Shown: positions 10,418 through 28,020 of the stretch, one piece after another
Layout of the letters: every line of letters begins with the position of its first letter
How positions within the stretch are numbered: the first letter of the stretch is position 1
Source of the DNA: Corallococcus exiguus
GTDB taxonomy: Bacteria > Myxococcota > Myxococcia > Myxococcales > Myxococcaceae
Direction: 5' to 3' (one strand)
DNA length: 28,645 bases
Assembly (NCBI RefSeq): GCF_012985235.1
Contig: NZ_JABELB010000107.1
Made by a program: the position numbers and the translations under genes
The notes under the pieces: generated by a model
What the model was told of the DNA's origin: nothing
The model's input: the letters and a program-made list of their open reading frames with translations, nothing else
Database searches by the model: none

Positions 10418-11302
10418 TCAGCCCTGCGCGGAGCGGGGCTTGCGCGTGGACTTCTTCGTCGTCGCGATCTCCAGCGACAGGTCCATGGCCCGCGCCGAGT
10501 GCGTCAGCGCGCCCATCGACACGAAGTCCACGCCCAGCTTCGCCAGCCGGGGCAGCCGATCCAACGTGACGCCGCCCGACACTTCGATGGGCACGCGGCT
10601 CGCCGTCAGCTTCACCGCTTCGCGGATCTGCGCGTCGTCCATGTTGTCCAACATGATGACGTCCGCGCCCGCGGCGATGGCCTCCTCCAGCTGCTTGAAG
10701 TTGGTGACCTCCACTTCAATCTTCACCAGCCGGGGACCGTTCAGCTTCGCGCGGCGCACCGCTTCGGTGATGTCGCCACCTACCGCCGCGATGTGGTTGT
10801 CCTTGATGAGGATGCCGTCGAAGAGGCCGAAGCGGTGGTTGGACGCGCCGCCCATGCGCACCGCGTGCTTCGCGAGGCCCCGCATGCCCGGCGGCGTCTT
10901 GCGCGTGTCCAGCACCCGCAGCTTCGAGCCTCGCACGGAGGTCATCGCCTGCTGGGCCAGCGTCGCGATGCCGGCGGCGCGCTGCACCAGGTTGAGCGCC
11001 GTGCGCTCCGCGGCCAGCAGCGAACGCAGCTTGCCGTGGACGCGCGCGGCGACCACCTTCGGTTTGATCTCCTCGCCGTCGCGCTTGAGGACCTCCACCT
11101 CCACCTCCGCGTCCACCATGTGGAAGACGCGGACGAAGGCGTCCAGGCCGGCGACGATCATCTGCTCCTTCGCGACCAGCTCACCGCTGCCCTCCGCTTC
11201 GGCGGGGACCACCGCCAGCGAGGTGACGTCCCCCGCAGCACCCAGGTCCTCGTCGAGGGACAGCGCGATGAGCCGATCGAGATAATCCTGCTGCACTTCC
11301 AC
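10418..11302 (-). CDS. nadC: Nicotinate-nucleotide pyrophosphorylase (quinolinate phosphoribosyltransferase)
   Basis: Family motifs are present: LDEDLGAAGDVTS, RVLDTRKTPPGMRGL, HRFGLFDGILIKDNH, GADVIMLDNM. The start lies 3 nt downstream of the valS stop. Confidence 0.9.
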   Translation of the reverse strand: MEVQQDYLDRLIALSLDEDLGAAGDVTSLAVVPAEAEGSGELVAKEQMIVAGLDAFVRVFHMVDAEVEVEVLKRDGEEIKPKVVAARVHGKLRSLLAAERTALNLVQRAAGIATLAQQAMTSVRGSKLRVLDTRKTPPGMRGLAKHAVRMGGASNHRFGLFDGILIKDNHIAAVGGDITEAVRRAKLNGPRLVKIEVEVTNFKQLEEAIAAGADVIMLDNMDDAQIREAVKLTASRVPIEVSGGVTLDRLPRLAKLGVDFVSMGALTHSARAMDLSLEIATTKKSTRKPRSAQG

Positions 11303-11305
11303 CTC

Positions 11306-14300
11306 CTACCGGCGCGCCTTGCGAGCCGGCTTGCCCCGAGTGGTCTTCTTCGCCGCGGCCTTCTTCGCGGCGGTCTTCTTCCCCGCCGCCTTCTTCGCCG
11401 AAGCCTTCTTCGCAGGAGCCTTCTTCACCGCCGCCTTCTTCGCGGCCGTCTTCTTGCCCGCTGCCTTCTTCGCGGAAGCCTTCTTCGCAGGGGCCTTCTT
11501 CGCGGCGGACTTCTTGCTCGCCGCCTTCTTCGCGGAGGCCTTCTTCGCAGGGGCCTTCTTCACCGCCGCCTTCTTCGAGGAGGCCTTCTTCGCAGGGGCC
11601 TTCTTCACCGCCGCCTTCTTCGCAGGGGCCTTCTTCGTCGGAGCCTTCTTCACCGGCTTCGCCGAACCCTCCGGAGCCTCGCGGGCGTCGCCGCCCTCCT
11701 TGGCCCGGTCGAACTCGCGCATCGCGTCGTCCACGAGGCCCATGCTCATGTACGCGACGCCCAGGTCGTGGTGGTCCGCCGGGGACAGCCCTTCCTTGGT
11801 GCCCTCGCGCAGCTTGTTGAGGGCCTCCTCCACCACCGGATCCGCGGCCTGGGGCGCCTGCGAAGCCTCTTCGGCTTCAATCTCGCCCTTCAGCTCCTGG
11901 CCCAGGTTCACCGCATCGTCCTTCGGTGCCTGCGGCTCGGTGGCCACCTTCACATGGGCGCTCTCGGGCGCGGGGGACTCGGACGCTTCAGGGGCTTCGG
12001 ACTCGGTGCTGCCCGGCAACGGCGACGGCGTCTCGGACATGGGGGGCTCCGGGGCGATGCGCTGGAGGTGATCCTGCAGCTTGACCGTGCGCTCCTGGAG
12101 CTCCGCCACCCGGGCCTTGTCCTTCTCCACCACGTCCGGCGGAGCACGGGCCACGAAGTTCGGGTTGTCCAGCTTGCGCTGCAAACCGGTGAGTTCCTGC
12201 TCGGAGCGGACGATCTCCTTCTTCAGGCGGTCGCGCTCCGCGTCCAGGTCCACCAGGCCCGCCAGGGGCACGTAGATTTCCAGGTTGCCGCTCACGAACG
12301 CCGCTGCCTGCGGAGGCTTGGCGCCCGGGGGGCCCACCACCACCTCGGACAGGCCCGCGAGCGGCATCAGGTACGCGCGCCAACGCTCCAACAGCTCGCG
12401 CGTCGTCGCGTCCGGGCTCTGCACCACCGCCTTCACCTTGGCGGACGGCGGCAGGTTGCTCTCGCCGCGCAGCGTGCGCAGGCCCTCGATGGCCGCGATG
12501 ACCGGCGCCATCTCGCCTTCCGCGGCCGCGTCCACCCACGCCGTCTCCGGCGCAGGGTACGCCGCGATGCAGATGCTCTCCGTGGGCCGGGACATCGGCA
12601 GCTTCTGCCAGATCTCCTCGGTGATGAACGGCATGAACGGGTGCATCAGCCGCAGGATGCGGTCCAGGCACGTCACCAGCACCGCGCGCGTGGTGTCCTT
12701 GGCCTCCGCGTCGTCGCCGTACAACGAGCCCTTCGCCAGCTCGATGTACCAGTCGCAGAACTCCGCCCACAGGAACTGGTACAGCGTGGACGCGGCCTCC
12801 GCGAAGCCGAACGCCTCCAGCGACGCGCGCGTCTCCTCGGTGGCCTTCTGCAGGCGGGAGAGGATCCACCGGTCCGCCAGCGTCAGCTTGCGGCCCTCCA
12901 GCGGCGTCTTGTCCAGGCTGAAGTCGCCCATGTTCATCAGGGCGAAGCGGCTGGCGTTCCACAGCTTGTTGCAGAACGCCTTGTAGCCACCCAGGCGGTC
13001 CATCGACAGCTTGATGTCACGGCCCTGCTGCGTGAGCGACGCCAGCGTGAAGCGCAGCGCGTCCGCGCCGTGCGCGGGCATGCCCTGGGGGAAGCGGTTG
13101 CGCAGCGACGGCTGCAGCGACTCCGCCTTCGCGCCGAGGATGACGTCCAGGGGATCGATGACGTTCCCCTTCGTCTTGGACATCTTCTCGCCCTTCTCGT
13201 CGCGCACCATCGCGTGCAGGTACACGGTGCGGAAGGGCACGTCGTTCATGAAGTGCAGGCCCATCATCATCATCCGGGCGACCCAGAAGAAGATGATGTC
13301 GTGGCCCGTCTCCATCACTGACGTCGGGTAGAAGGTCTGCAGGTCCGCCGTCTGCTTCGGCCAGCCCAGCGTGGAGAACGGCCACAGCGCGGACGAGAAC
13401 CAGGTGTCCAGCACGTCCGGATCCTGCGTCAGCTCCTTGCCGCCGCACTTCGGGCAGGACTCCGGCGCCGTGCGCGACACGATGACGTCCGCCGTGTCCT
13501 TCGAGCGCTCCTCCGCCGGGGTGCACGCCGCGCAGTACCACGCGGGGATCTGGTGGCCCCACCACAGCTGGCGGCTCACGCACCAGTCGTGGATGTTGTT
13601 CATCCAGTGGAAGTACGTGTTCGTCCACGACTCGGGGACGAACTTCGTGCGGCCCTCCTCCACGGCCTGGATGGCCGGCTTCGCCAGCGGTTCGATCTTG
13701 ATGAACCACTGCGGCGACAGGCGCGGCTCCACCACCGTGGTGCAGCGCTGGCAGGTGCCCACGTTCAGCTTGTGCGGCTCCTCCTTCTCCAGCAGGCCCA
13801 GCTCCGTCAGGTCCGCCAGCACCTGCTTGCGCGCCTCCCGGCTCTCCAGGCCCGCGTACTTGCCGGTGTCCTTCGTCATCCGCGCCGCTTCGTCCAGGAT
13901 GGACAGCATCGGCAGCTTGTGGCGCAGGCCCGTCTGGTAGTCGTTGAAGTCGTGCGCGGGCGTGACCTTCACCACGCCGGTGCCGAACTCCATGTTCACC
14001 AGCTCGCCGTCCGCGATGACCGGAATCTCACGGTCGGTGAGCGGCAGCGCCACGCTCTTGCCGATGAGGTCCTGGTAGCGCGGATCCTCCGGGTGCACGG
14101 CGACGGCCGTGTCGCCCAGCAGCGTCTCCGGGCGCGTCGTCGCCACGGTGAGGAAGCGCTCCGTGCCCTTCACCGGGTAGCGGATGTGCCAGAGCGAGCC
14201 GTTCTTCTCCTCGTGCTCCACTTCCAGGTCGGAGAGGGCCGTGCGGCAGGACGGGCACCAGTTGATCAGCTTCTGGGCCCGGTACATCAGGCCCTCTTCG

Positions 14301-14800
14301 TACAGCCGGACGAACACCTCGCGCACCGCGGCCGAGGACTGCTCGTCCATGGTGAAGCGCTCGCGGCTCCAGTCCAGGGACGCGCCCAGGTAGCGGTGCT
14401 GCTCACCGATGCGCGCGCCGAACTTGCCCTTCCACGTCCAGACGCGCTCGAGGAACGCCTCGCGGCCCAGGTCGTGGCGGCTCTTGCCCTCCGTCTTCTT
14501 GAGCTCCTTCTCCACCACCATCTGCGTGGCGATGCCCGCGTGGTCCGTGCCCGGCAGCCAGAGCGCGTTGAAGCCGCTCATCCGCTTCCAGCGCGTGAGG
14601 ATGTCCTGGATGGTCGCGGTGAGCGCGTGGCCGATGTGCAGGCTGCCCGTCACGTTGGGCGGCGGCAGCACGATGCTGAACGGCGGCTTGGAGGAAGGGG
14701 CTTCGGCGCGGAAGTAGTCGCGCTCCAGCCAGTGGTTGTACCACCGCGCCTCCACTTCGGAGGGCTCGTAGGCCTTGGACAGTTCAGTCGTGTCAGTCAT
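11306..14800 (-). CDS. valS: Valine--tRNA ligase with a C-terminal extension of about 230 aa ending in a Lys/Ala/Pro-rich pentapeptide-repeat tail
   Basis: Class I signatures are present ([14 protein letters not shown] as [12 protein letters not shown] as KMSKS). The editing and anticodon-binding regions and the C-terminal coiled coil are typical of ValRS. An acidic or TPR-like segment and about 20 copies of KKAxA extend the protein to 1164 aa. Confidence 0.93.
11319..11650 (-). repeat. Coding tandem repeat (15-bp unit GCCTTCTTCGCNGNN on the + strand) encoding ([15 protein letters not shown])n at the C-terminus of ValRS
   Basis: Read directly from the sequence: there are about 20 units with a higher-order periodicity of about 75 bp. 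Confidence 0.85.
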
Positions 14801-14853: not shown

Positions 14854-16116
14854 TCAATGCTGGGTCTCGCGGTCCTTGATGAGCCGCTCCAGCTCTTCCC
14901 GGATGATGGTCTCCGCCAGCTGCGGAACGACCTCCCAGGCAATCTTCTCGATGACCTCGCGGGACGCCTTCGACAGCGCCTCGCGCAGCAGCGCCTCTCC
15001 GCCATCCGCGGCCGGACGGGCGCGCGCGGGCGGAGTCGCCGGCGAGGGACCGCCGATGTCCAGGGAGATCTCCTCCGCGCCGCTGGGCTCGGGCAGCGAG
15101 TCCTCGATGCGGATGCTCTCCGTGCGGGCCTGCGCGGCGGGAGGGGCGGCCGGAGCGCCCAGCCCGAACGGATCCCGGGCACGGGCGGCCGGAGGCACCG
15201 CGGCGGGCGGGGGCGCGGACGGCAGCGGCGCGGCGCCCGGAGGACGCGGGAAGCCGCCCGGGATGTTCGGGGCGCCAGGGCCCGGAGGACGCGCGGCCAT
15301 GCCCGGAGGCGGCGCACCCGGCGGACGCGCGCCCGGAGGCACGGCACCCGGAGGAGGACGCGCACCCGGCGGCATGGCGCCCGGAGGCGGCGCACCCGGA
15401 GGACGCGCGCCCATGCCCGGAGGCGGCGCACCCGGCGGAGGACGTGCACCCGGCGGCATGGCGCCCGGAGGCGGCGCACCCGGAGGACGCGCGCCCGGAG
15501 GAACAGCGCCCGGCAGCGGACGCGCCGCACCCGGAGGAGGAGGCACACCGGCGCCCGGAGGACGCGCGCCCGGAGGCGGCGCACCCGGCGGAGGACGCGC
15601 ACCCGGCGGCATGGCGCCCGGAGGCGGCGCACCCGTGGGACGCGCACCCGGCGGCACGGCGGCGGCGGGCGGCGCGCTGACCGGAGCGCTCGGGGCGGAG
15701 GTCTGGGGCAGAATGCGCGTCGCGGCGGACGCGGGCATCGTGTTGGACTTCTGGCCCACCAGCGCCTTCACCTTGTCGAGGAGGATCTGGCTCTCGAAGG
15801 GCTTGGTGATGTGGTCATCCGCCCGGGCGGCCTTCGCGCGGTTCTCGTCGAACGCCTCGAAGGTGCCGGCGAGCAGCAGCACCGGGATGGCCTGCGTGGA
15901 GGGGTCGCCCTTGAGCGCCTCGCAGACCTCGTAGCCGCTCTTGCCCGGCATCATCACGTCGGCGAGCACCACGTCCGGACGCAGCTCGCGCGTGCGGGAG
16001 ATGGCGTCCAGCCCGTTGTCCACCGCGGTCACCTGGAAGTCTTCCGTCGCGAAGATCATCCCGATCACCTTGCGGATGGTGAGCGAGTCGTCGGCGATCA
16101 GTAGATTCTTGGGCAT
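14854..16116 (-). CDS. romR: RomR-like response regulator: CheY-type receiver, long proline-rich repeat linker, conserved acidic C-terminal domain
   Basis: The receiver domain is LLIADDSLTIRKVIGMIF ... VVLADVMMPGKSGYEV ... DHITKPF. The linker holds about 8 copies of PPGARPPGAPPPGAM. The C-terminal block is EALLREALSKASREVIEKIAWEVVPQLAETIIREELERLIK. This architecture matches Myxococcus RomR. Upstream ATGs at 16140 and 16200 are alternative starts. Confidence 0.65.
   Translation of the reverse strand: MPKNLLIADDSLTIRKVIGMIFATEDFQVTAVDNGLDAISRTRELRPDVVLADVMMPGKSGYEVCEALKGDPSTQAIPVLLLAGTFEAFDENRAKAARADDHITKPFESQILLDKVKALVGQKSNTMPASAATRILPQTSAPSAPVSAPPAAAVPPGARPTGAPPPGAMPPGARPPPGAPPPGARPPGAGVPPPPGAARPLPGAVPPGARPPGAPPPGAMPPGARPPPGAPPPGMGARPPGAPPPGAMPPGARPPPGAVPPGARPPGAPPPGMAARPPGPGAPNIPGGFPRPPGAAPLPSAPPPAAVPPAARARDPFGLGAPAAPPAAQARTESIRIEDSLPEPSGAEEISLDIGGPSPATPPARARPAADGGEALLREALSKASREVIEKIAWEVVPQLAETIIREELERLIKDRETQH
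15200..15700 (-). repeat. Coding tandem repeat (about 45-bp unit) specifying the PPGARPPGAPPPGAM proline-rich linker
   Basis: Near-identical CCCGGAGGCGGCGCACCCGG(C/A)GGACGCGCGCC(C/A) units are visible on the + strand. Confidence 0.8.
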
Positions 16117-16233
16117 CGGCTCCGGCCTCGGGGGGCGCATACCCCCCTGAATTCGTTTGAGATTTCGGGCGAGCAAGCCTGCCTGCACGCCCTGTGTCAA
16201 TCGGAGAAGCTTAGGATTCGCGCGTTGGGCCGA

Positions 16234-17100
16234 TCAAGAAAACATGCGCTGCAGGTCCAGTAACATCACCGGATCCGGCAGCCCCGGCGCCCGGAACGTT
16301 CCGGGAAGCTCGGCCGGCTTGAACTTCTGCAGCACACCCAGCACCCGGGTGGCCGCCAGCCCTACGTTCCGCCCCGCCAGTTCCGTGAGGACGAACAGCT
16401 CCTCCGCCTGGGCCGGCGCACCCAGCAGCGCTGGAATCGAACAGATGGGCCATAGCGCCTGCGCGTGGGGATAGACGCCCGCCACCGGCCCGCTCTGCAC
16501 CGGGAGCACGCTGAACGCCTCGCCCCGGGGTACCACCTGGGAGACGCAACCCAGCGGGACGCCGAACAGCACCCCCTGGGACTCCAGCACCAGCGCCCGC
16601 TCCGGGGGCGCGTCCGCATAGTGCACGGGCCGCGGCTCTGGCGGGGTCGCCCGGGGGCCCGCCCGGTGCGGCAGCGCTTCCACGATGAGCTCCAGGTACA
16701 GCCGGTCCTTGTGCAGCACCGCGCCCCGGCTCAGCGGCGCCAGCGAGTCCGCCAGGCCCGGAGGCAGCAGGAAGAACGGGTCCCTCGCGACGTCCGCGAC
16801 CTCCACCACGGCGCGCACCCGCACCGCGAGCGTGGGGCTGACGTCCAGGACCACCACCATGCCCGGCACTTCCTCAGGCAGGCCGCCGAGCAGCGCGGCG
16901 AGGTCCTTCACTTCCAGTACGCCGCGCAGACTCGCGCCGCGAGCGCCCGGCATCGCGACCTCGATGACGGAGGTGGCCTCCACCGCGTAGCGCGTCTCTC
17001 CGGCCTCCACCAGCAGGCAGAGCCGCCGTCCGCTTTCAAAGGGCACGGCCCGGGACCCTAGCAGCCTTCCAGCGTTGGGTGCTAAGCCCTGAACAGTCAT
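16234..17100 (-). CDS. CheW-like domain protein (apparently two CheW-like modules)
   Basis: CheW-like blocks are present (RRLCLLVEAGETRYAVEATSVIEV and a second VLFGVPLGCVSQVV...). The ATG at 17100 shares the CATG with the divergent response-regulator start. The frame is open to 17142. Confidence 0.5.
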   Translation of the reverse strand: MTVQGLAPNAGRLLGSRAVPFESGRRLCLLVEAGETRYAVEATSVIEVAMPGARGASLRGVLEVKDLAALLGGLPEEVPGMVVVLDVSPTLAVRVRAVVEVADVARDPFFLLPPGLADSLAPLSRGAVLHKDRLYLELIVEALPHRAGPRATPPEPRPVHYADAPPERALVLESQGVLFGVPLGCVSQVVPRGEAFSVLPVQSGPVAGVYPHAQALWPICSIPALLGAPAQAEELFVLTELAGRNVGLAATRVLGVLQKFKPAELPGTFRAPGLPDPVMLLDLQRMFS

Positions 17101-18487
17101 GGCGCGACTGCTCCTCGTCGACGACGAAAAGATCGCCCGCAATCTCTACGGCGACTACCTCACGGCCGCGGGACACCTGGTCACGGCGGTGCCCACCGTG
17201 GCGGACGCGAAGGCAGCCCTCTCCGCGGCGCGGTTCGACGCGGTGGTGACGGACCTCATCCTCCCCGGCGGCGACGGCATGGAGGTGCTTCGCCACGTGC
17301 GCGAGCGCTACCCCGGCGTGGAGGTGCTGGTCATCACCGGCCTGGACAAGGTGGCCCCCGCGGTGCGCGCCATCAAGAGCGGCGCGGCGGAGTACCTGGT
17401 CAAGCCCGTGGCGCCGGAGGCCCTGGAGCACGCGCTGCGCCGCGCGCTCACCACGCGCGACCTGATGCGTGAGAACGCGTCCCTGCGCCAGCACGTCGCG
17501 CTGCTGGAGGCGGGCCAGCGCATCGCCACCACGCTCGACCGCGAGCGGCTGTCCACGGCCGCGTCCGACGCGCTGGAGTCCATGGCCAACGCCTCCGCGG
17601 TGATGCTCCTGGAGCGGGACCCTGGCGGCACGGGCTTCCGCTCGCACGGCATGCGCGGGCTGCCGGTGGACCTGCACGAGGCGCTCGTCCCGCTGCTCAT
17701 CGAGCGGCTTTCGGGCACGCGCACGCAGGTGGAGCTCGACGGACTTCAAGTTCCCTGGCCGCGCACCCTCTCCTTCCCCGCCGTGGACGGCGAGCTGGTG
17801 CTGGGCCACGCGGTGCTATTCCACGACAACGCGCCCGCGGAGCACCACGCGGAGACCGTGGGCTTCCTCGTGCGCAACTGGGCGCTGGCCCTGCGCAACC
17901 TGGGCCGCTTCGCCGCCGTGGAGGACCTGGCCTACGTCGATGATCTCACCCGCCTGTTCAACACGCGCTACCTGCACCTGGTGCTGGACCGCGAGGTGAA
18001 CGAGGCCCTCCAGACGGAGCGCCCCTTCTCCCTGCTGTTCCTGGACCTGGACCGCTTCAAGGCCATCAACGACACGCACGGGCACCTGGTGGGCTCGCGC
18101 GTGCTGGTGGAGGCCGCGCGCGTGCTCAAGGGCTGCGTGCGCGACCCGGACGTGGTGGCGCGCTTCGGCGGTGACGAGTACGTGGTGCTCCTGCGCGGCA
18201 CGGACTCCGGCGGGGCCCTCAAGGTCGCCGAGCGCATCCGCCGCACCATGGAGACCCATCAGTTCCTGGGCCGCGAGGGGCTGGCGCTCAAGCTCACCAC
18301 CTGCATCGGCGTGGCCAGCTTCCCGGAGCACGCCCAGGACAAGGACCACCTGCTGGACCTGTCCGACCGGGCCATGTACCGGGGCAAGCGCGGCACCCGG
18401 AACGTCGTCTACATGGCGGCGCAGGACCTGGAAGCCACCCCGGCCGAGCGCCGTCAGAATCCCCCGCCCCCGCAGGGCCAGGGCTGA
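17099..18487 (+). CDS. Response regulator with receiver, GAF-like and GGDEF (diguanylate cyclase) domains; active-site motif reads GGDEY
   Basis: The receiver is MARLLLVDDEKIARNL ... DAVVTDLILPGGDGMEV ... KP. The GGDEF domain is RLFNTRYLHLVLDREV ... LLFLDLDRFKAINDTHGH ... ARFGGDEYVVLL ... DRAMYRGKRGTRN. Confidence 0.85.
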   Translation: MARLLLVDDEKIARNLYGDYLTAAGHLVTAVPTVADAKAALSAARFDAVVTDLILPGGDGMEVLRHVRERYPGVEVLVITGLDKVAPAVRAIKSGAAEYLVKPVAPEALEHALRRALTTRDLMRENASLRQHVALLEAGQRIATTLDRERLSTAASDALESMANASAVMLLERDPGGTGFRSHGMRGLPVDLHEALVPLLIERLSGTRTQVELDGLQVPWPRTLSFPAVDGELVLGHAVLFHDNAPAEHHAETVGFLVRNWALALRNLGRFAAVEDLAYVDDLTRLFNTRYLHLVLDREVNEALQTERPFSLLFLDLDRFKAINDTHGHLVGSRVLVEAARVLKGCVRDPDVVARFGGDEYVVLLRGTDSGGALKVAERIRRTMETHQFLGREGLALKLTTCIGVASFPEHAQDKDHLLDLSDRAMYRGKRGTRNVVYMAAQDLEATPAERRQNPPPPQGQG

Positions 18488-22930: not shown

Positions 22931-24004
22931 ATGGCGAAGCGCATGGCGAAGCAAGGGGAGGCGCGGGACATGGACGCGCGGCTGGAGGGAGTCGCGGACG
23001 CCTTCGAGGCGAGGGACTTCGAGGCCGCGCTCACCAGCGCCGACGCCCTGCTCCGGGACGTTCCGGACTCACCAGAAGCCCTGCACTACCGGGCCGCCGC
23101 GCTGGTGGAGGTGGGACGCCTGGAGGACGCGGGCAAGGCCTATGGCGCCGCCCTCAAGAGGGCCCCGGAAGACCTGGAGATCCTCTTCGGCGCGGCGGAG
23201 TTCCTCGTGTGCCGCACTGGCGAGGACCGCGAGGCGGTGGAGGAAGGGCTGGAGTGGTGCGGCCGCGGGCGGAAGCTGGCGCAGCGGACCGATGACGTGG
23301 AGCTCGTCTACGAGTTCCTCCTCCTGGAGGGCATGGGCCTCAACCAGCTGGGGGAATGTGAGTCCGCGCTGAAAATCCTGGACCAGGCGCTGACGCACAT
23401 GCCGCGCTCGACGGACGCGCAGCTGGAGCGGGGCATCGCGCTGTTCGAGTTGTGCCGCTTCGCGCCCGCGCAGGAGGCCTTCGAGCGGGTGTTGAAGGAC
23501 GCGCCGGACGAGGCCTGGGCGCACCACTACCTGGGGCTGGTCGCGGAGCGGCGCCAGGATGCGAAGGAGGCGAAGAAGCGCTTCTCCCGGGCGCAGGCGC
23601 TGGCCCCGGAGGAGCTGCCGCCGCCGGTGGCGCTGGAGGAGGCGGCGTTCGACCGCGCGGTGGAGGACGCGATGCGCGCCCTGCCCTCGCAGGTGAAGCA
23701 GTACATGGACAACGTGACGCTGGCGGTGGAGGACCTGCCGTCGGATGAGGACCTGCTGGGTCAGCAGCCGCCACTGTCACCGTGCATCCTGGGGGTGTTC
23801 CGGGGCACGCCCGTGGGCGAGCGCAGCGTGATGGACGCGGCGGATCACTTCCCGCCCTCCATCGTGCTGTACCAGAAGAACCTGGAGCGCTTCGCGCGCA
23901 CCCGCGAGGAACTCATCGAACAGATTGGCATCACGGTGATGCACGAAGTCGGTCACTTGATGGGTCTGGATGAAGACGACCTGTGGGAGCGGGGGCTGGA
24001 CTAG
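22931..24004 (+). CDS. TPR-repeat protein fused to a C-terminal zincin-like domain (DUF1025 / Possibl_zinc_metallo-peptidase-type, MHEVGHLMGLDEDD)
   Basis: Several TPR-like Ala/Leu-rich helical repeats are present (ALHYRAAALVEVGRLEDAGKAYGAALKRAP ...). The C-terminus has ITVMHEVGHLMGLDEDDLWERG, characteristic of the small metal-dependent hydrolase family with HExxHxxG. Confidence 0.7.
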   Translation: MAKRMAKQGEARDMDARLEGVADAFEARDFEAALTSADALLRDVPDSPEALHYRAAALVEVGRLEDAGKAYGAALKRAPEDLEILFGAAEFLVCRTGEDREAVEEGLEWCGRGRKLAQRTDDVELVYEFLLLEGMGLNQLGECESALKILDQALTHMPRSTDAQLERGIALFELCRFAPAQEAFERVLKDAPDEAWAHHYLGLVAERRQDAKEAKKRFSRAQALAPEELPPPVALEEAAFDRAVEDAMRALPSQVKQYMDNVTLAVEDLPSDEDLLGQQPPLSPCILGVFRGTPVGERSVMDAADHFPPSIVLYQKNLERFARTREELIEQIGITVMHEVGHLMGLDEDDLWERGLD

Positions 24005-27921: not shown

Positions 27922-28020
27922 GGTAGGGCCTCCGGACCTGGTGGCCGGCCCGGTCTTCAAAACCGGTGAGGGGCTGCGAGAGCAGTCCCTGGCGAGTTCG
28001 ATTCCCGTGCCCTACCGCCA
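27922..28020 (+). tRNA. selC: tRNA-Sec (selenocysteine, anticodon UCA), 99 nt including the encoded CCA
   Basis: The 8-bp acceptor stem is GGTAGGGC/GCCCTACC, with discriminator G and CCA. The anticodon stem-loop is CCGGT-CTTCAAA-ACCGG, giving U33 and anticodon TCA. A long variable arm (GGGGCTGC-GAGA-GCAGTCCC) is present. The T-arm is GCGAG-TTCGATT-CCCGT, which has one A·C mismatch but otherwise parallels the E. coli selC T-arm. The 8/5 geometry and extra arm are tRNA-Sec hallmarks. Confidence 0.75.

Follow-up and report, generated by a model that had tools for sequence, protein, structure and literature searches.

A three-part C-terminal extension with a lysine/alanine-rich pentapeptide tail on the valyl-tRNA synthetase of Corallococcus exiguus and related myxobacteria

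Bacterial valyl-tRNA synthetase (ValRS) canonically ends in a coiled-coil tRNA-binding arm, which raises the question of what the residues are by which the enzyme of the myxobacterium Corallococcus exiguus continues past this arm, and what they might bring to it. We analyzed this question on a stretch of 28,645 nucleotides (contig NZ_JABELB010000107.1 of assembly GCF_012985235.1; hereafter the window), in which the valS gene encodes such an enlarged ValRS. The extension has a three-part organization, in which a disordered linker of acidic character leads to a small helical module and this to a polycationic tail, again disordered, and it is really translated and kept across the lineage. Our preferred reading, to which we give about an even chance, is that of a translated, selected and disordered polycation which, placed beside the tRNA-binding arm, would capture tRNA.

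The valS coding sequence (11306..14800, minus strand) is a single unbroken open reading frame (ORF) of 1164 codons closed by a TAG stop at 11306-11308, and its product is 100% identical to the C. exiguus valine--tRNA ligase deposited at NCBI as WP_169820992.1. Its coiled-coil arm (12056..12250, minus strand; aa 851-915; Pfam Val_tRNA-synt_C, E 1.2e-18), which AlphaFold2 (AF2) models as a helical hairpin with predicted local distance difference test (pLDDT) values >95, is where ValRS of other bacteria stops, and in tblastn comparisons non-myxobacterial homologues lose the match at query aa ~901-932, mostly at ~915. An initial annotation of the locus had placed some 230 additional residues past the coiled coil; the position holds, but counted from the end of the Pfam domain the extension beyond the canonical end comprises 249 aa (916-1164), beginning directly past Val_tRNA-synt_C. 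It opens with the linker (11912..12055, minus strand; aa 916-963), rich in Pro, Ser and Glu and with AF2 pLDDT values mostly <50, whose composition bears out the acidic Ser/Pro-rich spacer annotated before. The linker leads into a conserved helical module of ~73 residues (11693..11911, minus strand; aa 964-1036), recognized by conservation, by the AF2 model and by a match to the SgmX model described below, and aa 916-1040 as a whole carry a net charge of -18. The Lys/Ala-rich tail (11309..11659, minus strand; aa 1048-1164) consists of 21 KK-initiated pentapeptides, in each of which the two lysines are followed by three small residues (A, P, S, T, V or G), and of 10 closing residues. Its 117 residues include 45 K, 41 A and 8 P, and the tail as parsed by script (aa 1045-1164) has a net charge of +49. 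Besides that of ValRS, no Lys/Ala tail was found elsewhere in the window.

Several observations bear on whether this part of the gene is read as protein. In a window of ~68% GC, the GC content at third codon positions (GC3) in the valS frame is 0.97 in the core and 0.89-0.90 through spacer and tail, as expected of translated sequence in this genome, and all 45 lysine codons of the tail are AAG. Furthermore, among the 120 closest homologues, which we examined together with 18 related genomic loci, more than 90 continue in a single frame across a comparable tail. An interruption ahead of the repeat, by stop codon or frameshift, which the initial annotation had named as the finding that would undo its reading, was looked for and not encountered: the frame is unbroken in the window, and the cultured strains among the homologues showed neither such an interruption nor a truncated allele. 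A plus-strand ORF of 250 aa, rich in F and A, spans 11319..12071, and was discarded as a by-product of the repeat, the GC3 signal being that of the minus frame. Similarly, two apparently free-standing module-plus-tail genes among the relatives (P0013, 94 aa; P0017, 115 aa) were rejected as separate genes; they lie on contigs of metagenome-assembled genomes (MAGs) of 0.39 and 6.1 Mb, next to valS split into several ORFs, and are read as frameshift artefacts because the adjoining valS genes are fragmented. An Rfam scan at valS returned no RNA element.

The full layout of acidic linker, module and basic tail is found in Corallococcus, Myxococcus, Pyxidicoccus, Stigmatella, Hyalangium and many Myxococcaceae MAGs, while the ValRS of Archangium, Cystobacter and Melittangium keeps the acidic linker and the Lys/Ala tail and has no helical module. 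More distant Myxococcota MAGs have basic tails that are shorter or Arg-rich, and a set of ~70%-identical MAG proteins of 910-934 aa is unextended. More than 90 of the 120 nearest homologues carry the extension, which is the norm within Myxococcaceae and Archangiaceae, and its earlier description as unusual for bacterial ValRS is right only outside the Myxococcota, where the same scan found a Lys/Ala-rich tail in none of 62 ValRS sampled (0/62 non-myxobacterial sequences). The ValRS of the window passes the NCBIfam model NF011492 (PRK14900.1, valine--tRNA ligase) with 1819.4 bits against a cut-off of 1783, aa 1-1107 aligning to model positions 3-1019 of 1044, and is therefore a member of an already modelled long ValRS family; it also passes NF004349 (1254.6 bits, cut-off 704) and TIGR00422 (1136.9 bits, cut-off 612). 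NF011492 names the protein only, with no function or domain description for the ~180 positions by which it exceeds the 860-position standard model. The extension is thus catalogued in databases by a dedicated model, yet our full-text literature searches found no paper describing it in myxobacteria; the Myxococcus xanthus orthologue MXAN_4460 is mentioned only as a gene flanking romR (PMC2034494).

How the tail has been maintained can be read from its variation. On the DNA level it coincides with a 15-bp tandem repeat with a 45-bp super-period (11345..11655, no strand given), which was detected by Tandem Repeats Finder, a repeat search and a script. Tandem Repeats Finder reports period 15 with 20.7 copies (76% matches, score 298) and period 45 with 6.9 copies (81% matches, score 370), and the longest exact repeat in the tail region is 44 bp, its copies lying 45 bp apart. 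The count of about 20 Lys/Ala pentapeptides encoded by a 15-bp repeat, given in the initial annotation, is thereby matched by 21 protein units and 20.7 DNA copies. In the 90%-identity cluster of C. exiguus and close relatives, the 15 listed members have ValRS lengths of 1150, 1152, 1154, 1159, 1164 and 1165 aa, and their alignment contains indels of 4, 5, 10 and 15 residues, all of them inside the repeat, while the module is nearly invariant (1 or 2 substitutions). ValRS lengths in the M. xanthus group vary likewise (1274-1332 aa). Strain-level indels in steps of ~5 residues therefore confirm the repeat as a site of instability and as the slippage hotspot that had been foreseen, here in Corallococcus ValRS at least 90% identical to one another and 1150-1165 aa long.

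Such instability invites the view that the tail has for the most part no adaptive value and that a GC-rich repeat prone to slippage (AAG GCN GCN) has grown in the 3'-terminal part of an essential gene, where it is tolerated, and the 44-bp exact repeat at 45-bp spacing, the frequent strain-level indels in multiples of ~5 residues, the reported enrichment of lysine repeats in GC-rich genomes and the existence of relatives without any extension would all agree with this view. We nevertheless regard this view as quite improbable. The tail measures 80-218 aa in full-length proteins as a whole; in those of cultured genera, it varies from 86 to 218 residues and its net charge stays between +41 and +59, so that it persists in several genera within a narrow range of charge despite the turnover of its sequence and length; it always occurs with the acidic linker and usually with the strongly conserved module, its terminal ...KARR is conserved, and no frameshifted or truncated alleles appear in cultured strains. 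In the same set of proteins the linker region varies by genus in length and sequence and is always net negative (-6 to -35), with one entry, P0191 of M. stipitatus, parsing at only -1.

Codon comparison with C. praedator points in the same direction. The module differs by 18 synonymous and 8 non-synonymous changes and is under purifying selection, whereas the tail differs by 24 synonymous and 31 non-synonymous changes, which fall mostly at the x positions, the lysines being kept while the x positions vary; between Corallococcus species, identity amounts to 90% in the module and 78% in the tail. A drift in sequence and length at steady charge and with lysines retained points to selection on charge, and the pattern of the tail is the one to be expected if its charge and presence, and not its exact sequence, are under selection. 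Separately, we observed that the extreme C-terminus of ValRS (...KARR, ...AKARR; 11309-11320, minus strand) is conserved across genera despite the turnover of the preceding repeat (orthologues L001-L018 and P0163-P0282), a conservation not explained by the ribosome-binding site of the following nadC gene because that site covers the stop codon only.

What such a tail might do is suggested by its position. As structural work on Thermus thermophilus ValRS has established, it is at the elbow that the coiled coil meets the tRNA, and in eukaryotes the Lys-rich domains appended to synthetases, among them that of yeast ValRS, have a non-specific affinity for tRNA. By analogy with these, the extension is probably a non-specific grip on tRNA or other polyanions, and the tail would most likely act by charge alone. 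Since it is tethered next to an arm that contacts the tRNA elbow, we infer that its main effect would be tRNA capture: from this position, the tail could raise the local concentration of tRNA at the enzyme and thereby lower the apparent Km for tRNA-Val, as do the Lys-rich appended domains of eukaryotes. By folding back on the tail, the acidic linker may keep indiscriminate binding in check, and the helical module would most likely make a protein-protein or intramolecular contact.

The comparison with eukaryotes has its limits in the architecture. The Lys-rich appended domains of yeast ValRS (N-terminal domain) and of LysRS, AspRS and GlnRS (N-terminal extensions) are, like the myxobacterial extension, largely disordered and fused to a synthetase terminus, in our case with 45 lysines in 117 residues at the C-terminus of ValRS. 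However, the eukaryotic domains are N-terminal, shorter and without tandem pentapeptides, whereas the tail of this bacterial ValRS sits at the C-terminus, behind an acidic linker and a module resembling a tetratricopeptide repeat (TPR), and is encoded by an unstable 15-bp repeat. An added non-specific tRNA affinity in cis has been shown for the eukaryotic domains and is proposed here for myxobacterial ValRS.

Several points weigh against tRNA capture. Some Myxococcaceae-level MAGs carry the unextended ValRS of 910-934 aa; part of the tail could be tolerated low-complexity growth, because repeats of this kind are reported to be generally enriched in GC-rich genomes; and the choice of ValRS in particular as the carrier of the tail is not explained. 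The literature searches found no paper on the protein, which appears (as MXAN_4460) only in the role of a flanking gene (PMC2034494). Moreover, the documented roles of bacterial Lys/Ala/Pro tails consist in the binding of DNA or polyphosphate (polyP), as described for Streptomyces TopA, HupS and Ku (PMC5714199) and for AlgP and PhaF (PMC11894788).

The last point leads to the resemblance of the tail to histone H1-like sequences. With the C-termini of Pseudomonas aeruginosa AlgP, PhaF, Chlamydia Hc2, actinobacterial TopA, HupB and HupS and some myxobacterial CarD proteins, the tail shares a K/A/P composition and a K1-2(A/T/N)3-5 periodicity, and bacterial H1-like tails likewise occur in GC-rich hosts and with repeat numbers varying between strains, as is reportedly the case for algP. 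The best-matching families for the tail are Pfam HC2 and the NCBIfam H1-like models. HC2 (PF07382) scores 42.6 bits against a cut-off of 40 on what is a low-complexity region, while hist_H1_lk_Burk (NF038053; 48 bits, cut-off 80) and the H1-like model NF038052 (27.9 bits, cut-off 135) remain below their thresholds. As judged from these scores, the likeness is one of composition and not of demonstrated homology, and the term 'histone-H1-like', as used in the initial annotation, describes the composition of the tail. Another difference lies in the carrier, in that the proteins equipped with H1-like tails are associated with DNA or granules, and it is DNA or polyP that these tails bind, whereas the ValRS tail is borne by a tRNA synthetase.

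On these grounds, the tail might instead be a nucleoid, DNA or polyphosphate anchor that sets the position of ValRS in the cell, in the manner of the H1-like domains of AlgP, PhaF, TopA, HupB and CarD. The tail conforms to the published definition of a 'lysine repeat', K1-2(A/T/N)3-5 at the C-terminus in a GC-rich genome; in Streptomyces TopA such repeats were shown to bind DNA, and they are over-represented among proteins with this activity and reportedly enriched in GC-rich genomes generally (PMC5714199). The tails of AlgP and PhaF bind DNA and polyP granules, and the polyP granules of M. xanthus sit embedded in the nucleoid (PMC11894788). Together with the ranking of HC2 and the H1-like models as best-matching families, these parallels of composition and pattern make the anchor the main rival to tRNA capture, from which it differs only in the ligand, because tRNA, rRNA, DNA and polyP compete for the same charge. 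We consider it possible but doubtful, since no DNA-related role of ValRS is known, the tail is attached next to the arm that binds tRNA and all resemblances to H1-like proteins are compositional. Docking of a partner, to which we turn with the helical module, and the neutral growth of the repeat discussed above are both less likely than a DNA or polyphosphate ligand.

In the AF2 model, the module forms four helices (~966-980, 988-1002, 1007-1020 and 1023-1035), the last pair with a pLDDT of ~95 and the first pair with 65-80, and 21 of its residues are invariant across 21 sequences (LREGT, L, D, DLGVAY, MGL, DDA, RE). The last two helices constitute a single TPR-like helix-turn-helix (11696..11782, minus strand; aa 1007-1035), indicated by Pfam TPR_2, profile search and Foldseek. 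The initial annotation had already noticed a short TPR-like helix pair, and the stretch it quoted is indeed present at aa 1006-1030; what it did not see is the larger conserved module of ~73 residues around the pair. TPR_2 is matched by 20 of the 21 members, in all cases under the 27-bit cut-off (best E 1.4e-4; 16.4 bits for the copy in the window). The module shows the pattern LGvAY...GL.DDA..eF, to be compared with the W-LG-Y-A-F-A-P type of consensus of the 34-residue TPR (PF07719, PF00515). When run against the PDB, the module profile matches consensus TPR proteins and MamA, and an exhaustive search with the same profile finds multi-TPR proteins through 6-11 repeated matches to profile positions 52-80. 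Foldseek against the PDB gave nothing at E <= 0.001 and only short single-repeat TPR superpositions, in which 30 module residues fit repeats of MamA and of consensus TPR proteins to 0.4-0.5 A (E ~1). Taken together, the TPR identity of the helix pair is supported at the motif level. The module holds one TPR unit only, after two non-TPR helices and before the disordered tail, where a tandem array usually has at least three, and therefore does not amount to a TPR domain as ordinarily understood.

Some TPR proteins match the entire module, with the pattern 'DFFDLASELRDELS..VP...EQSLDDIFEEFKRGVE...D.HYNLGVAYKEMGLLDDAI.EF', and this segment of theirs maps to positions ~830-920 of the NCBIfam model of SgmX, the type IV pilus activator of M. 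xanthus. The ValRS module itself matches the SgmX model (NF052243) at positions 831-924 with E 4e-10. In BLASTP, it is 42% identical to P0137, one of the widespread SgmX-like TPR proteins, along a stretch of 76 aa that takes in the pre-TPR 'DLxxELxxEL' helix. The match stops far short of the full-length family with its about 14 TPRs, and with 38.5 bits against a cut-off of 1800 ValRS is therefore not an SgmX family member. Homology of the pre-TPR segment alone to SgmX-like proteins was tried and rejected (7-13 bits, not significant), and the claim of similarity therefore rests on the whole module. A homologue search for SgmX proper returned only TPR fragments, mainly from Thermoanaerobaculia, other Acidobacteriota and Myxococcota. 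By profile and BLASTP comparison, then, the module is locally similar to the linker end and first TPR of the C-terminal TPR block of SgmX-type proteins, sharing with them the acidic 'DLxxELxxEL' helix, a second helix and the first TPR; this SgmX-like nature was previously unremarked. From there on the two diverge: SgmX continues into more TPRs forming partner-binding triads, whereas ValRS has one TPR and then the basic tail.

If the module were the functional core of the extension, it could dock a partner such as a receiver domain, a TPR protein or ValRS itself and recruit the synthetase to a complex or location, leaving the tail an accessory. Within the extension, conservation is highest in the module (21 invariant residues; identity between Corallococcus species 90%, as against 78% in the tail), both the match to the SgmX model at positions 831-924 (E 4e-10) and the 42% identity over 76 aa that includes the pre-TPR helix fit such a role, valS lies directly downstream of romR, and the C-terminal TPR triads of SgmX bind the receiver domain of FrzS and MglA (PMC9811614). 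On the other hand, the usual functional unit of TPR proteins is three repeats (PMC9811614), of which ValRS has a single one; with 7-13 bits for the pre-TPR segment by itself, most of the signal comes from that one TPR; and Archangium, Cystobacter and Melittangium keep linker and tail without the module. In addition, the partner is only hypothetical, and the adjacency of romR and valS also occurs with unextended ValRS (L013, L014), so that synteny does not track the extension. We therefore rate docking as rather unlikely. A bolder combination would make the extension a localisation or regulatory device, in which an SgmX-derived TPR module docks a receiver-type or TPR partner, of the class of FrzS, RomR or SgmX, and the resulting complex is pinned by the +49 tail to some polyanionic surface, tying ValRS to the polarity and motility circuitry or to nucleoid-embedded polyP granules. 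We hold it to be very improbable; if true, the activity or position of ValRS could couple to cell polarity, starvation or development.

Apart from the extension, the enzyme is a standard ValRS. The class I catalytic and editing core (13004..14743, minus strand; aa 20-599; Pfam tRNA-synt_1, E 1.3e-150) contains both the HIGH (SLHIGHAL) and the KMSKS (KMSKT) signatures, as read from the translation, and is followed by the anticodon-binding domain (12425..12874, minus strand; aa 643-792; Pfam Anticodon_1, E 5e-42).

Directly upstream of valS lies the RomR orthologue (14854-16200, minus strand), in which a receiver domain is combined with proline-rich repeats of the PPGA type over ~230 aa (local GC reaching 0.84) and with a helical, Glu-rich C-terminus, and beyond it a CheW-like gene (16234-17142, minus strand) and a response regulator-GGDEF (RR-GGDEF) gene (17099-18487, plus strand). 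This order of romR and valS with the CheW-like and RR-GGDEF genes is that of M. xanthus MXAN4460-4463 (PMC2034494). A functional link through romR synteny was rejected: the adjacency is real but gives no support, because it is also present in lineages whose ValRS is unextended. On the other side, nadC (quinolinate phosphoribosyltransferase; 10418-11305, minus strand) comes after valS practically without a gap. Overlapping the TAG stop of valS is a GGAGG, and the GTG found five bases past it (11294-11296) probably serves as the start of nadC, an arrangement that suggests translational coupling of valS and nadC; the same gene order occurs in the MAG loci L081 and L082.

Elsewhere in the window, a 759-aa protein (7435-9714, minus strand) with Vault, Vault_2, Vault_3 and Vault_4 domains and the shoulder domain of Major Vault Protein is a bacterial homologue of the eukaryotic vault shell protein, for which no NCBIfam model match was found. 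The window further includes a selenocysteine tRNA gene (27922-28016, plus strand; Rfam RF01852, 70.5 bits), a protein that combines a LysM domain with a peptidoglycan-targeting C-terminal domain of the VgrG3-like kind known from type VI secretion (1942-3660, minus strand), and a protein with TPR repeats and a C-terminal zincin-like metallopeptidase domain (Zincin_1; 22931-24004, plus strand), which is unrelated to the ValRS module.

Overall, the extension is an unusual three-part variant of two themes, the Lys-rich appendages of synthetases and the H1-like tails of bacteria. Appended domains of aminoacyl-tRNA synthetases are usually described as a eukaryotic innovation, and in the present case a large appendage in three parts has become fixed, on one synthetase, across a whole lineage of bacteria whose multicellular behaviour is complex. 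Should the tail capture tRNA, this would be an independent bacterial re-invention of a eukaryotic solution; if it anchors the enzyme to the nucleoid or to polyphosphate, it would bear on the spatial organisation of bacterial translation. The strain-level variation of the repeat at conserved charge offers a natural experiment on selection on charge in disordered regions, and the genetics of M. xanthus (MXAN_4460) makes the system tractable for asking what such tails bring to a cell.

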